Source of the DNA: an uncultured archaeon
Lineage (GTDB): Archaea > Asgardarchaeota > Lokiarchaeia > Sigyniarchaeales > SOKP01
DNA length: 18,911 nucleotides
Assembly: GCA_964388035.1 (NCBI GenBank)
Contig: CAYLZE010000099.1
Span: 1 to 18,911, forward strand
Direction of reading: 5' to 3'
Shown here: positions 2,717 to 15,452 of the stretch, piece by piece
Position numbering within the stretch: the first letter of the stretch is position 1
Layout: each line of letters opens with the position of its first letter
Notes under the pieces: generated by a model
Database searches by the model: none
Seen by the model: the letters and a program-made list of their open reading frames with translations, nothing else
Told to the model about the DNA's origin: nothing
Position numbers and translations under genes: made by a program

Positions 2717-3691
2717 TTAGGTCCCTCCTTCTTCCAATAGCATCTCGATTGTTTTAAGATTCTGGTTGGAAATCGTTTTGATTACTTCTAAAAGTACTTC
2801 AGGGCTTTTATTTTTTGTTATCGCAAGTAATATTACCCCATTTTTCACTTCTTTAGCGATCACATAGCTTGAATCCGATTCAAACATGATCGTGGAAAGA
2901 TATAATGGAGAGGGGGGAGAATCCATCAATTTAACTATTTTTTCATAAATTTGGTATAAATTCGAATCGGGAGCACTTATTTTGAATGTCATGAATTTAA
3001 GTGGTTCACTATCGAATTTCCCTAAAGTTGAGGAGATCAATAATCCATCGGGTTGATTGAATAATAAATATTCCGAAAGTGTCGTGCTTTTCAATTTATC
3101 AAGGAAGTGCCTAATCTTGCCCATTCTTGCCATGCTCACCGTGCTGTTTGTTATCTCAAAATCTAAAATTTCAATTAACCGATGTTGAGCACTTCCTTCC
3201 TTTACGGAAACAGGAGTAAAGACGACCTTCTTTTTAAAGTCTTCTTCCATATCTTTTATAAGATACTCATATAATTCGTCTTCTTTGGAGTTAGGAAGAT
3301 CTATTTTATTTAAAAGACAATAAACCTTACTCACTTGCGGACTATACTCAAATAGATACTTCACAAAGCTAAAAAATATATTCTTAATTCTTTCTTCAAT
3401 AATGGTAGAATCCACCATGAATACAGCTATTGAGCATTCAGAAAATATTAATTCCCTCTGTGACTCCGAAAAATATCTTTCTATGTAATGAGTTTGGCCC
3501 CCTGCATCCCAAATACTAATTTCACATAGGCCTCTAAAGATATAATTCTCTCTACTAATCCCTTTAGTAGGTTTTAGGTTAATTACCTTCATAAAATTGT
3601 AGCCTAAGCAGGTGGTTCTCATGAGACTAGTCTTTCCCGCATTTTCAGGCCCGAATAAAAGCAGCTTCAATTTTTTAGACCTTTTAATCAA
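2717..3691 (-). CDS. RagA/Gtr1-like small GTPase with probable C-terminal roadblock domain
   Basis: G1 GPENAGKTS, G2 LKPTKG, G3 IWDAGGQ followed by Rag-like YIERYFSESQRELIFS, G4 NKID. C-terminal ~140 aa show a roadblock-like pattern (helix, YLLFNQPDGLLISST, helix, three strands, helix). Confidence 0.85.
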   Translation of the reverse strand: MIKRSKKLKLLLFGPENAGKTSLMRTTCLGYNFMKVINLKPTKGISRENYIFRGLCEISIWDAGGQTHYIERYFSESQRELIFSECSIAVFMVDSTIIEERIKNIFFSFVKYLFEYSPQVSKVYCLLNKIDLPNSKEDELYEYLIKDMEEDFKKKVVFTPVSVKEGSAQHRLIEILDFEITNSTVSMARMGKIRHFLDKLKSTTLSEYLLFNQPDGLLISSTLGKFDSEPLKFMTFKISAPDSNLYQIYEKIVKLMDSPPSPLYLSTIMFESDSSYVIAKEVKNGVILLAITKNKSPEVLLEVIKTISNQNLKTIEMLLEEGGT

Positions 3692-4089
3692 TTTATTGAA
3701 ATTTTATTTTACATTATTAAGAAGAAAAATCTTCTTTTTAAAGTTATTTTATTTGGAATATCTCTGATACTTATTTTATTTTAGTAAAAAATATCCAAAA
3801 TTCATTATTTAATTTTTCCTAAGGATTTGGATTGCTTTCTTTATTAAGAAAACTTGGTATTATTTTAATTTAGGTAAATCCCTTGATCATTTAATTCGTT
3901 CTTTATACTCAGTTAGTTAGATTACATAAAATCGACTTGCTATAGAGACAATCATACCCGATTTAATTTAATATATTAAAAAGCATTTATAGTTTGAAGG
4001 AAGGAAATAGATCATAATTAAATACTCTAAAAAATTTATAGAACTGTACTAATATAAAACAATTTATCTCATGGAAAAAGGATATTAAT

Positions 4090-9936: not shown

Positions 9937-11022
9937 TTAGATATTTGTCAATTCATCTTGATATTTTAAAATCTCCGTGATTGGGATGTCTCTATCAAAT
10001 TCAATATTCATTTGAATTCCTAAATAAGCACATGCTAATTTTGCAGCTGCGGCGATTTCGGCTTTCTTTAAAGTAACTGAATACTCATCGCCAGAAGGTT
10101 CATTATTCTGACCGATATCTTGATTTATATAACTCTTATTAACGGAACCTCCTTGAGTTGTATTTTTAAATTTATTTTCTTGCACTTGAATTGCTCTTTC
10201 TGATTTCATTTTAGAAAGAAGCGATGCCATTTTATCTGCGACGTTAAAAGGCAATTGATTTTTAGTCACAACTCTGATGATATTATTCACATCGAAATAA
10301 TTTAATGTTTTATATTTAGCACGTAAGAAACCTTTGAGATTCTCAGAATCCTTTTCACACTCAATTTGGATCCAATCATGAATCGCTAAGCCACGCCTAA
10401 AAAAGATTAATTCCCAATCAATTCCTAATTCTTTTAAGAATTTTAGAAAATTATCATCTTCTTGTTCTCGAGAAGCGATAATTAGATAAAGCTGAAGTCC
10501 ATAATATTTATGTTCTTGTTGTAGAAATAAACCCCTTTGCTGCATTGAGGCTAATATTTTCAATTTAATAGATAAGATATTCTCAGAAACACTTTCCCTG
10601 CCACAATTTAAATAAATTACGTTCCCTTCCTCGTTAATATATTTGGCATTTAAAAAACCTAAGATACTTTCATTATTTTCTTCAACAAATTCCATTAAAC
10701 CGCTCAATGTGGGAGTTACATCAAACTTAATTAAATCGCTTTTTTCGATAGTCACATAATCTGATATACCTCCCCCAATCGCTAACTTTATTGTCTTTAA
10801 TTTAAGTTCTTTATCAATACCAAACAGCTTTTTGATACTTTCATTAATTGGGAATACTTCCTCCTCCAAGATCTTAAGATCTGCAATAGTTATCTCATAG
10901 GGATCTGGAATTTTGGTCAATTTATTAATGATAGGTGCTTCCGAGGCATCTACCTCTACTTCATAGGGTTTGGATAAATCTTTACGAATGATACAATAAA
11001 ATCTATCCTTTTTCTTATACAT
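9937..11022 (-). CDS. Hypothetical soluble protein (361 aa; possibly 391 aa from ATT at 11112)
   Basis: Long ORF in AT-rich DNA with globular composition; no family recognised. Frame stays open upstream to 11148. Confidence 0.75.
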   Translation of the reverse strand: MYKKKDRFYCIIRKDLSKPYEVEVDASEAPIINKLTKIPDPYEITIADLKILEEEVFPINESIKKLFGIDKELKLKTIKLAIGGGISDYVTIEKSDLIKFDVTPTLSGLMEFVEENNESILGFLNAKYINEEGNVIYLNCGRESVSENILSIKLKILASMQQRGLFLQQEHKYYGLQLYLIIASREQEDDNFLKFLKELGIDWELIFFRRGLAIHDWIQIECEKDSENLKGFLRAKYKTLNYFDVNNIIRVVTKNQLPFNVADKMASLLSKMKSERAIQVQENKFKNTTQGGSVNKSYINQDIGQNNEPSGDEYSVTLKKAEIAAAAKLACAYLGIQMNIEFDRDIPITEILKYQDELTNI

Positions 11023-11412
11023 TGATAAGGAAGTATTTTCACTAACCGCAGCTCTGAATAATTCCGTTGACTTACTTTCCGTATCGTTTGAAGATATCCT
11101 TCTTCTTTGAATATTTATCCACTTAACCAGGTATTTGAAAATATAAGTTTACTAATTTATATAAAAAAATTTTCTCTTAAATTCTTATCTATAAAGGGAT
11201 TATTAAGATTTATGATTTCAATTTATAACCGCTTAAATTAACATTTTTTCCTTTATCATGAAAAAAGTCCTCATATTTAACCCTTTTGATTTTAAGAAAC
11301 ATATCACGGATAAAAAATGAATTGCTTTTTAACCATCTAACTTGGATGGTCAAAGATTTTGAAAAGAGGTTTATTTTAAAATAAGTAATATAAGTAATAA
11401 AAAATTAAAGTT

Positions 11413-11589
11413 TTAAAGTTCCTCTTCTAGAAAATAATCTTCGTCCTTTTTTATATAAGTTATAGTCGAACCAAAATTATTAATAACTATATATTTATCT
11501 CCCTCTACTTCTACTAAATCTAAGGAATAGGGTAACCTTCTTTTCTTTATAATATCTTGGATAATTTTCCTTTTCTCTGTTTCTTCCAT
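11413..11589 (-). CDS. Small hypothetical protein, 58 aa (not in the ORF track)
   Basis: Manual translation: MEETEKRKIIQDIIKKRRLPYSLDLVEVEGDKYIVINNFGSTITYIKKDEDYFLEEEL*. Protein-like composition; TATA-like TTTTAAAA 28-35 nt upstream of the ATG. Confidence 0.75.
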   Translation of the reverse strand: MEETEKRKIIQDIIKKRRLPYSLDLVEVEGDKYIVINNFGSTITYIKKDEDYFLEEEL

Positions 11590-11613
11590 GATAATTCAAT
11601 TACAAGAATCCTT

Positions 11614-11627
11614 ATCTTTTAAAAGAT
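11614..11627 (-). promoter_or_regulatory. Putative TATA box inside the perfect palindrome ATCTTTTAAAAGAT, serving the 58-aa gene
   Basis: TTTTAAAA at 11617-11624 lies at the spacing expected for an archaeal leaderless or short-leader transcript starting near ATG 11589. Confidence 0.4.
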
Positions 11628-12127
11628 TTGGTTCCAAAAAAAATTTCCTACTAATAAATAATTATTCTCTATTTCTAATTTTTTCCAAATCTTGCTAAAG
11701 AGCCGAACATATTCCATGATTTTCTTTAAGTGTGAAATTGATAAATATTCAAGAATAAGTTCTATCAAGGATTATTTTTTTAAACCAAATTTAATAAAAA
11801 ATAATCATTCCATAAACGTTTCTCTCCATTTTTATAATCATATAGATTAATATATAGCTATTTGAATTCCAAATACTTGTAATAGAATTGCTTGAACCTA
11901 TAATTCTCTCTTTAGATCTACAATTATAATATAAATTCATAAAAAATTTAATAAGATTTTATTAAGAATGCTTTAGATTTTTAATAAATGTCTGGCTTTT
12001 TTAATAAAACGATTATTTATACAAAGTAACTATATCTTGAATTTTGATATCAAAAATTTGACTCCTTAAGTTTTTAATATAATCTTATTTGTGTTTCACT
12101 TATAAACCATTTAAAGAATGAATTTAC

Positions 12128-13389: not shown

Positions 13390-14172
13390 TTAAATATTAA
13401 ACTCTTTTTTAATACCATTCAATTTCTCAGCACATTTATTGCATAAATGGATGGATTTATTATCGATATCATCTACTATTTTTGAAGATTTCATCACGCA
13501 GGAATTTTCTTCACAATGTTCATGTCCCAGAATAAGATGACCTATTTCATGTATTATCTCCTTAGTGATTCTTTGCTCTAGAATGTGATTATTCTCTTCT
13601 CTGTTATAAAACCCTTCTTTTAATTTCAGAGTTGAAATGATGCAACAATCGTGCATTAAATGCGCTTCTCCAAATAAAAAATAAATATCATTATGATTAC
13701 TGGAATAAAGAGGTAAAGAAGTAATTGCTGCGATCATATCCAGGTTATTTTCAATACGTTTATCAATTAGAAGTTGGTAGAATTTATTTGTGGGGTGAAG
13801 ATTGAACTTTCTCTCAGTTTGAGTATGGGCACTTTTCTCGGTCTTGGTTCCTTTTTTTAACATGGCTTTTGAAAAATTATAAGATCCGAGATTTTGAATG
13901 TTATATAAGAAGGTACCAAAAATTTTATTCAATTTATCAGAAATTGCATCAAATAATTCATGATTTAAATCTTGTTCGCAAAATAAAATTCCGAGATGGC
14001 AAGGAAATACGAGTTTCTGTTTATCAGGTAAATCTTCTAGTTGAAATTCTTTATCACTATATATTCCTACACGATACACTAAGCTTGACAATTTTTGTCT
14101 GAATTTAATATTCGAAAGTTTTGATCTATACTTTCGAATCTTCTTTTCCAAACGTTTATATTTAGAAGCCAT
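13390..14172 (-). CDS. Archaemetzincin-like zinc metalloprotease (peptidase M54)
   Basis: FLFGEA, ISTLKL, RITKEIIHEIGHLILGHEHC, Met-turn CVM, terminal LCNKC completing the Cys4 site; basic N-terminal extension. Confidence 0.88.
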   Translation of the reverse strand: MASKYKRLEKKIRKYRSKLSNIKFRQKLSSLVYRVGIYSDKEFQLEDLPDKQKLVFPCHLGILFCEQDLNHELFDAISDKLNKIFGTFLYNIQNLGSYNFSKAMLKKGTKTEKSAHTQTERKFNLHPTNKFYQLLIDKRIENNLDMIAAITSLPLYSSNHNDIYFLFGEAHLMHDCCIISTLKLKEGFYNREENNHILEQRITKEIIHEIGHLILGHEHCEENSCVMKSSKIVDDIDNKSIHLCNKCAEKLNGIKKEFNI

Positions 14173-14393
14173 TTAATTGGAAATTATTTTCGTATTTAGT
14201 GAAATATTACTAGCGAAAATTTATTTTTTTAGTCTTTAACTTATAAATGTAGGGAGCATTTTTAATTTTGTTTAGAATTTTGTCACGAAAGAAGGGATAG
14301 ATAAAACATAAACCGTAAGTTTAATAATTATACCTATTTATGATAATTTAAAATTAATTAAGATTCTAATCACCAAAATTTCTTATTTCAGCT

Positions 14394-15452
14394 ATGTCTA
14401 ATAACCCTGAAAGCAAAGATAAAAACTCCAAGGATGCAGAACATGGGCATAAAACCATTCAAGGACCCAATAATGAAAAGCAAATGGTAGAAAAATCTGG
14501 TGTGCCAAATTTCTTTCCTACGTATCGAGTAAAACGCAATATATATCCGTTACCTATTTTAATTGTCGTTGTTTTTGCAGGAATTCTGGCTTATCTAACT
14601 TACGTGCAGGCGGGAATACAAATTGATGCGGGATATGTTTCTGAACAACAATATGGCGCGACCGCAGGATTATTAAATGGACTAATCTTCGTTTCCTTTG
14701 CTGCTATTTCTTCCTTCATTATTATTTTTCTGATTAGAAAGGGCGGGATAAATGTCTTAAAATATATCTTTGGGTTTAGCTTTGGCTTCTTATGTTTTTT
14801 CTTGACCTTGTTTTTTGGAGATATAATTCTTTATCTCAGCTTCTATAATTTACCCTCTACAGAATTCATCTACAATCTATATAATACCCTTTTTTACTTA
14901 ATGTTTGCATTTATCATAGGATATACTATTGTCATGCTTTACAAATACTTCACTGCAAAAACATATCGCGTCAAAAATTTCTTTGTACTTTACGTTAGTT
15001 TATTGACAGGAGCCTTACTTGGCGTGAGTATGCCTTTATGGACCACTCTCGCTATTTTAATAGGAATTTCTTTATGGGATATTTACGCTGTTAAATCAAA
15101 AAAGGGGCCAATACGCAAGATGATGGATATCGTGACATCTGAATATGACGGTGAATTATCAGAAGAAGAAATCAAGCAAAAAATCAAATCGGGAGAAATT
15201 GAATATGATAGCTCACAGTTAGAAATTGGAATCGGAGATCTCACTTTTTATAGCATGCTTACTTCCAGTGCTTTAATTCAAAGTGATAGTCTAATTGTAA
15301 TGATATTAACTGCAATTGCGATAATAATTGGAACAGGTATCACGATTTCTGGTTTGAAGCGTAATAAAATATTGCCCGGGTTACCCATTTCCATATTTTT
15401 AGGGATTGGAACGATGCTACTATCTTGGTATATCCTCCTAACTTTTTTCTAA
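14394..15452 (+). CDS. Presenilin-family GxGD intramembrane aspartyl protease (peptidase A22)
   Basis: About nine hydrophobic segments; ISLWDIYAV (Asp229), [12 protein letters not shown] (Asp282), [11 protein letters not shown] (PAL-equivalent). Confidence 0.92.
   Translation: [352 protein letters not shown]

Follow-up and report, generated by a model that had tools for sequence, protein, structure and literature searches.

A Lokiarchaeial presenilin-type gene belongs to a barely studied archaeal family nearer to human presenilin than PSH

Gamma-secretase, an enzyme of Notch signalling and amyloid production, has presenilin as its catalytic core; the archaeal homologue PSH, to our knowledge the sole prokaryotic model that has been investigated, is a member of another, more distant family. 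The genome of a Lokiarchaeial (Asgard) archaeon carries an open reading frame (ORF) that resembles presenilin, which raises the question of how near the encoded protein stands to the eukaryotic enzyme and whether it would work without the other gamma-secretase subunits. The stretch of DNA analysed here, referred to as the window, is the whole 18.9-kb contig on which this ORF lies, and it comes from a 5.47-Mb genome (96.7% complete, 7.3% contamination). Presenilin homologues of Asgard archaea were reported in 2021, among them a PF01080-type presenilin in the cultured Asgard archaeon MK-D1 (Russum et al., 2021; PMC7997004), and our literature search found no paper with phylogeny or biochemistry of the Asgard proteins. 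Judged by its family, the ORF encodes a predicted presenilin-type membrane-embedded protease, and the gene is a typical Lokiarchaeial representative of an archaeal presenilin family that is known but has hardly been studied. Its position is as follows.

14394..15452, + strand: presenilin-type gene (PF01080, MEROPS A22A-like), an ORF of 352 amino acids with nine predicted transmembrane (TM) helices and a Pfam score of 83.7 bits

The ORF is intact and occupies exactly these positions. The Pfam search matched it to PF01080 (Presenilin) well above the cut-off of 34.3 bits (E 1.5e-23), the match falling into two stretches, TM2–TM6 and TM7–TM9, and a six-frame search of the genome was concordant. 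Neither PF06550 (PSH; searched at E<=1) nor PF04258 (SPP) matched the ORF in Pfam, and none of the NCBIfam models did so, including the PSH model NF041679; because NCBIfam has no model for them, its relatives are mostly called 'hypothetical protein' in NCBI records. When all PDB sequences were searched with phmmer, only human PSEN1 (E 1.2e-13) and PSEN2 were matched, and the PSH chains remained unmatched even at E<=1. The Pfam and PSEN1 E values both lie far outside the range of chance matches. Profile comparison with hhalign gave the same picture: the Loki family scored 208 against eukaryotic presenilins (E 6.8e-28) and 48.7 against Bathyarchaeial PSH (E 4.9e-6), the latter close to the 49.1 of eukaryotic presenilins against PSH (E 7.4e-6). 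An earlier note on this DNA, made from the letters alone, had placed the protein, in motif detail, closer to eukaryotic PSEN than to typical archaeal homologues. Sequence, profile and predicted structure all put eukaryotic PSEN much nearer to it than either PSH or SPP; the protein is clearly nearer to human presenilin than PSH, the one archaeal homologue studied. The motif strings quoted in that note are present in the translation (WD 228–229, GIGD 279–282, PGL 328–330, [11 protein letters not shown]). The strings that it gave for human PSEN1 (...[32 protein letters not shown], lglgdfifysvl, ailiglclt, lpalpisitfg) agree with the phmmer alignment to 5a63_B, and the AGL that it gave for Methanoculleus PSH is correct, PSH reading YDAISV, GMGDLIMP and QAGLP in the alignment.

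Structure prediction pointed in the same direction. An AlphaFold2 model built on a 118-sequence alignment of archaeal and eukaryotic proteins has nine TM helices (predicted local distance difference test, pLDDT, 89.4; predicted template modelling score, pTM, 0.86), and the predicted model has the nine-TM presenilin fold. Foldseek ranked ligand-bound human PS1 on top (E 6.8e-9), with PSH at 7e-5 and SPPL2a at 4e-3. Alignment with VIA-align superposed the model on PS1 with Z 27.6, a root-mean-square deviation of 2.5 A over 273 residues and 22% identity; the Z values were 21.2 for SPPL2a and 20.7 for PSH. The lysine and arginine residues of the loops, 20 in all, lie without exception in the N-terminal tail and the even-numbered, predicted cytosolic loops, with 0 in the outer loops, and the predicted topology is therefore that of presenilin, with the N-terminus and the TM6–TM7 loop in the cytoplasm. 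The parts of the gene that matter for this reading are listed below.

14394..14546, + strand: hydrophilic N-terminal tail, predicted cytosolic, residues 1–51 (composition, positive-inside count)
14499-14555, + strand: juxtamembrane motif ..FFPTYR.KR..YP.P, residues 36–54, conserved in the Loki family
15075..15080, + strand: TM6 putative catalytic motif WD, with invariant D229
15096..15230, + strand: TM6–TM7 loop, predicted cytosolic, residues 235–279 (phmmer alignment, model, composition)
15228..15239, + strand: TM7 putative catalytic motif GIGD, with D282; G279, G281 and D282 invariant
15375..15383, + strand: PGL, equivalent of the PAL motif before TM9, within LPGLPIS; in 120/120 closest homologues

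Across the 118 archaeal and eukaryotic sequences, D229, G279, G281, D282 and P331 are invariant, and P328 and L330 nearly so. GIGD is followed by LTFYS, as in presenilins, and the GxGDxxxP of PSH and SPP is not present. The hydrophilic N-terminal tail and the acidic TM6–TM7 loop described in the earlier note are both real by composition and model: the first 51 residues hold 9 K/R and 6 D/E, with residues 1–19 modelled at pLDDT <50, and the loop (235–279) holds 11 D/E versus 7 K/R, running from KKGPIRKMM, the equivalent of PS1 TM6a, through an acidic stretch and short strands to GIGD. Within the tail, short strands were predicted (DSSP) at residues 30–32 and 43–47, and P42 and P54 are invariant in the Loki alignment. 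The short strand in the juxtamembrane motif was predicted with high confidence, and two further strands were predicted right before GIGD; in PS1, the region before GxGD pairs as a sheet with the substrate.

Among the closest 120 homologues, the three motifs are nearly constant (WD in 117/120, GIGD in 119/120, PGL in all). At the TM6 site, YD is the state of eukaryotes and of most archaea. PGL is the majority state among archaeal PF01080-type proteins, and PAL occurs among archaea in Njordarchaeales, in a group with GSGD that belongs to another family (f2) of the same order, and in Thermofilaceae; Njordarchaeales carry the complete eukaryotic set, YD/GLGD/PAL. PGL can therefore not be regarded as intermediate between eukaryotic PAL and the AGL of PSH, as had been proposed.

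Set beside the known enzymes, the protein shares with human PSEN1 and PSEN2 (PF01080, A22A; PDB 5A63, 6IYC, 6IDF, 9K95) the Pfam family, the nine-TM fold and the N-in topology, and also an Asp in TM6, an Asp in the GxGD of TM7, the ..ISxxD..AV...KGP.. context of TM6/6a, GD..FYS, and LP.LPIS before TM9. It differs from PS1 in overall sequence (about 21–22% identity), in having WD/GIGD/PGL where PS1 has YD/GLGD/PAL, and in the loop from Asp to Asp, which measures 53 residues versus 128 in PS1. PSH/MCMJR1 of Methanoculleus marisnigri (PF06550, NF041679; PDB 4HYC, 4HYG, 4Y6K) has the same nine-TM fold and, as an archaeal stand-alone GxGD protease, is the best functional model for cofactor-free activity; it differs in its Pfam family and in its motifs (YDAISV, GMGDLIMP, AGL), and is a paralogue of the PF01080 type. 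SPPL2a and SPP (PF04258, A22B; PDB 9K92, 9K93) have the GxGD aspartyl intramembrane protease fold in common with the window protein but are only 14% identical to it, carry a GxGDxxxPG that it lacks, and have a topology inverted relative to its predicted N-in arrangement.

How widespread is this type of presenilin? A word-indexed protein search returned 478 proteins at E<=1e-3; the best 120 of these are all Asgard proteins from metagenome-assembled genomes (MAGs) of Promethearchaeota/Lokiarchaeota, 57–80% identical to the ORF, and all carry PF01080, which marks the source organism as a Lokiarchaeial Asgard archaeon. One of these 120 is already called 'Presenilin' by NCBI; entries like 'MAG: Presenilin [Promethearchaeota archaeon]' belong to the same family, as do the homologues from Loki, Heimdall and MK-D1 genomes in Russum et al. 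(2021; Transporter Classification, TC, 1.A.54). What that paper and the records offer is a statement of homology, made in the paper within a transporter census, with no phylogeny, structure, cofactor search or gene context. An exhaustive search of representatives returned 665 cluster representatives. PF01080 matches were found in 145/201 sampled Asgard genomes and in 39/40 of the window's own family. The Asgard genomes showed no separate PSH-type gene, their few weak PF06550 matches being genes that score better on PF01080. A scan of GTDB species genomes placed further Asgard relatives in Njordarchaeales, Heimdall- and Hodarchaeia and Baldrarchaeia, and relatives outside Asgard in Bathyarchaeia, Nitrososphaerales, Nitrosopumilales, Thermofilaceae and one Aenigmatarchaeote. 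Every scanned relative scored higher on PF01080 than on PF06550; a single one, at 33.4 bits, fell short of the PF01080 cut-off. On one Bathyarchaeote contig (L066), a PSH gene (PF06550, 228.6 bits; 1900-2823) lies directly upstream of a PF01080-type gene (2845-3693), and this tandem indicates that the two archaeal types are old paralogues. PSH is thus only one of two archaeal presenilin types; eukaryotic presenilin has its archaeal counterpart in the PF01080-type family rather than in PSH. This family is found in most Asgard archaea and in several lineages of TACK (Thaum-, Aig-, Cren- and Korarchaeota), and the window gene is its orthologue in Lokiarchaeia. The idea that the protein is unusual among archaeal homologues does not hold, the PF01080 type being normal in Asgard archaea and present in TACK as well. 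Longer proteins, P0129 (1100 aa) and P0139 (855 aa), contain a similar presenilin-type module, and fused forms therefore exist.

The position of the protein relative to eukaryotic presenilins was examined in four trees. Where an outgroup was used, it was Bathyarchaeial PSH, validated versus 4HYC at E 1.9e-50, and the eukaryotes were sampled from Thecamonas, Anaeramoeba, Apiculatamorpha, a nematode, a mite and a tick. Support is given below as SH-aLRT (Shimodaira–Hasegawa-like approximate likelihood ratio test) where so named, and PMSF stands for posterior mean site frequency.

Tree 1, 126 rows, FastTree: agrees with the findings common to trees 2 and 3
Tree 2, 89 rows, IQ-TREE LG+C20+F+G4 (PMSF), quick: TACK basal; Asgard plus eukaryotes SH-aLRT 94; eukaryotes and Njordarchaeales sisters (90)
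Tree 3, 49 rows, LG+C20+F+G4 (PMSF), careful: basal trichotomy of Njordarchaeales, eukaryotes and the rest
Tree 4, 52 rows, no outgroup, LG+C20+F+G4 (PMSF), careful: TACK versus Asgard plus eukaryotes 86/95; polytomy inside

In trees 2 and 3, with FastTree agreeing, a long 100/100 branch parts all PF01080-type sequences from PSH, and the eukaryotes form a single 100/100 clade. The window protein thus lies on the far side of that branch from the PSH clade, within which its placement, according to the earlier note, would have told against a close relationship with eukaryotic presenilins. It falls within the Loki clade, whose sister in trees 2 and 3 is a divergent group with GSGD and PAL motifs (98–100). 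The members of this group are about 460 aa long, come from the other family mentioned above (f2, genus g10), and have a longer TM6–TM7 loop.

L110, 1243-2613, − strand, and L111, 725-2116, + strand: genes of the GSGD/PAL group (proteins P0144, P0145, P0161)

The group is fast-evolving and has GSGD in place of a GxGD with hydrophobic x. Its appearance as a neighbour of the eukaryotes in a first FastTree run was an artefact; with better sampling and a mixture model, it became the sister of the Loki clade. The proposal of a close relative of eukaryotic PSEN therefore stands in part: the protein belongs to PF01080 and is parted from PSH at 100/100, but it was never the sister of the eukaryotes in the maximum-likelihood trees. 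Its family is the expected one for such a relative, and its superclade probably is as well.

Gamma-secretase contains nicastrin, APH-1 and PEN-2 besides presenilin, and these were sought with Pfam models in the window, in its own genome and in the 201 Asgard genomes. The window holds no gene for any of the three by this search, as the earlier note had said, and in this respect the genome differs from the human system. At E<=1, nicastrin (PF05450) was without a match in the own genome, and its matches in the 201 Asgard genomes were all weak, none exceeding 27.6 bits; most of these candidates cover the first ~80/218 model positions in large unrelated ORFs, two are longer, in ~400-aa ORFs, and none was retained. 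APH-1 (PF06105) had no match in the own genome, and the single Aph-1 match in the 201 Asgard genomes proved to be a YhfC/CPBP protein (YhfC 52.3 versus Aph-1 26.6 bits). APH-1 has been proposed to descend from the YhfC/CPBP family, of which the own genome has members as well.

L150, 1468-2196, + strand: YhfC/CPBP protein scoring just above the Aph-1 cut-off (Pfam)
G000:C22:17690-19292, − strand: two tandem YhfC genes on another contig of the own genome (Pfam)

PEN-2 (PF10251) yielded only noise in the own genome (E 0.17, with stops within the match) and nothing above the cut-off in the 201 Asgard genomes. The Asn of the TM4 'NF' site, which is invariant in eukaryotes and not conserved here, aligns with F173 of the window protein. 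We take the NF site to be the PEN-2-binding site of presenilin, and F173 at the position of its Asn fits a cofactor-free enzyme like PSH. PSH (MCMJR1) is active alone, and it is plausible that the window protein, too, would work without cofactors.

The gene next to the presenilin gene, in divergent orientation, encodes an archaemetzincin.

13390..14172, − strand: archaemetzincin (Peptidase_M54), 260 aa, divergent from the presenilin gene (Pfam)
14173..14393, strand not assigned: AT-rich intergenic region of 221 bp between the divergent genes, presumed to hold their promoters from a reading of the sequence

Archaemetzincin has animal homologues. Its biological role has been described as little known (PMC3427221), and we found no paper in the literature that links archaemetzincin with an archaeal presenilin. 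The window's archaemetzincin has an intact HExxHxxGxxHC...C...CxxC motif and is predicted to be soluble, with no TM segment. An M54 gene adjoins the presenilin gene, divergently, in 12/20 genomes of the Loki family, and the pairing recurs elsewhere: nine Bathyarchaeia loci have both genes in the same direction, and in the most closely spaced of these the stop codon of one abuts or overlaps the start codon of the other; in Asgard family f4 they also share a direction, and in f21/Hod-type genomes they diverge (the linked loci include L051, L082, L091, L114, L054, L055, L059, L115 and L130-L149). No adjacent M54 was found in the Njord, Heimdall 370-aa type, Nitrososphaerales and Thermofilaceae loci. 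That the pairing turns up in distant lineages and in differing arrangements suggests a functional link, though not a universal one. The Loki-linked M54 proteins stand apart as a long-branch clade and carry a basic extension at the N-terminus; since only these form a separate long branch, one dedicated presenilin-linked archaemetzincin subfamily was rejected. Two other M54 paralogues lie elsewhere in the own genome. A prediction of the complex of presenilin with archaemetzincin (score 0.00, mark 0.32) neither supports binding nor counts against it. Other neighbours are more constant: a glycosyltransferase family 4 (GT4) gene adjoins the presenilin gene in 20/20 family members sampled, and a 3-hydroxyacyl-CoA dehydrogenase (3HCDH) gene follows it in 15/20, by which the presenilin gene is a stable resident and not contamination. 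The remainder of the contig includes genes for Ftr, Mtd and Mch of the tetrahydromethanopterin (H4MPT) pathway, a Gtr1/RagA-type GTPase, a beta-CASP nuclease and a leucine-rich repeat (LRR) protein.

What, then, would the protein do? We consider it likely that it is a Loki PF01080-type GxGD intramembrane protease that acts alone and cleaves single-pass membrane proteins. In the proposed mechanism, the nine helices of a presenilin-type (PF01080) GxGD aspartyl intramembrane protease would bring D229 (WD, TM6) and D282 (GIGD, TM7) face to face as the catalytic pair, PGL (328–330) before TM9 would complete the active site, and the N-terminus and the TM6–TM7 loop would lie in the cytoplasm as in presenilin. 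We infer its proteolytic activity, cofactor independence and substrates alike, drawing on PS1 and PSH: it would cut single-pass membrane proteins within their transmembrane segments and would need neither nicastrin nor APH-1 nor PEN-2 to do so. Several observations weigh against this reading. WD and PGL deviate from the canonical YD and PAL. The cofactor searches used Pfam profiles only, and a membrane partner that is small or divergent, for instance a hairpin like PEN-2, could escape them, so that the absence of cofactors is not proven. The recurrence of archaemetzincin as a neighbour is a hint that the enzyme may not work wholly by itself. A proto-gamma-secretase with partners, joined in a complex or a fixed pathway and drawn from the archaemetzincin or from unrecognised small membrane subunits, would account for the repeated M54 adjacency in the Loki family, Bathyarchaeia, f4 and f21/Hod-type genomes and for the separate Loki-linked M54 clade with its extension. 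Yet 8/20 Loki-family genomes keep the presenilin gene without M54 at the site, the linkage fails in the four groups named above, adjacency within a family may be mere inherited synteny, and M54 is soluble and cytosolic and therefore no ectodomain sheddase; with the three known subunits also missing from the Pfam results, we hold this alternative to be rather unlikely. A main role as a passive cation (Ca2+) leak channel instead of a protease (TC 1.A.54) is less likely still and strikes us as quite improbable. Russum et al. (PMC7997004) file the Asgard homologues under the presenilin endoplasmic reticulum (ER) Ca2+ leak channel family and cite channel activity of PSH, and PMC9433394 says likewise; however, the strict conservation of both Asp residues, GxGD and P.LP in >100 sequences points to selection for catalysis, and the two roles are compatible with each other. 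An active stand-alone intramembrane aspartyl protease thus appears most likely.

The origin of the gene has rival readings of its own. That the Loki protein represents the specific sister lineage of eukaryotic presenilins is suggested by raw similarity, whose ranking points elsewhere than the trees: on PF01080, the window protein is exceeded among the archaeal forms scored only by the GSGD/PAL group f2 (87.1 bits) and the Asgard f16 form (97.7), with Heimdall/Hod at 57–60 and Njord at 40–48, and in hhalign the Loki type scores higher against eukaryotes than Njord does (172). Approximately unbiased (AU) tests allowed a clade of Loki, the GSGD group and eukaryotes (difference in log-likelihood, dlnL, 7.98, p 0.22), but rejected none of the other three groupings either, namely eukaryotes with Njord (dlnL 0.42, p 0.33), with all Asgard (dlnL 4.08, p 0.28) and with TACK (dlnL 11.8, p 0.21). 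The maximum-likelihood trees set the eukaryotes beside Njordarchaeales, in a basal trichotomy or in an Asgard polytomy, and the robust sister of the Loki clade is the GSGD/PAL group of its own order; the sister reading is accordingly improbable to us, and the Njord–eukaryote grouping, which joins two long branches, may itself be an attraction artefact. Recent acquisition from a eukaryote, or eukaryotic contamination of the bin, could be read from the best PDB and Pfam matches, which are eukaryotic. Against it stand the ~21% identity to PS1, the archaeal H4MPT genes on the same contig, the synteny-conserved orthologues in all 20 sampled family genomes, and clades that track archaeal taxonomy with the eukaryotes as one clade outside the Loki clade; it is refuted for practical purposes, and its remaining probability is minute. 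A broader scenario, in which presenilin was inherited vertically from Asgard archaea by eukaryotes, with the Asgard enzyme as a cofactor-free precursor of gamma-secretase that was paired with a cytosolic archaemetzincin in a two-protease pathway, is speculative and on balance doubtful.

The PF01080-type archaeal enzymes stand nearer to the human protein than PSH and are apparently cofactor-less, and one of them is reported from the cultured MK-D1; they could therefore serve as a simpler and closer model of presenilin catalysis, and they bear on the timing of the origin of gamma-secretase during eukaryogenesis. What the window gene itself adds is modest: papers and databases already record the family, this copy does not stand out among its members, and it is not demonstrably nearer to eukaryotes than all the others.

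Some minor features of the window lie apart from the presenilin locus. Scans for tRNA and Rfam families in the window returned nothing. The GTPase gene at 2717-3691 (− strand) encodes a 324-aa small GTPase of the Gtr1/RagA family, a eukaryote-like signature protein typical of Asgard archaea. A 361-aa ORF at 9937-11022 (− strand) has no Pfam family, and next to it, at 11023-12127, lies a 1.1-kb region of 23% G+C that holds no ORF longer than 58 aa, a plausible 58-aa ORF being located at 11413-11589 (− strand).

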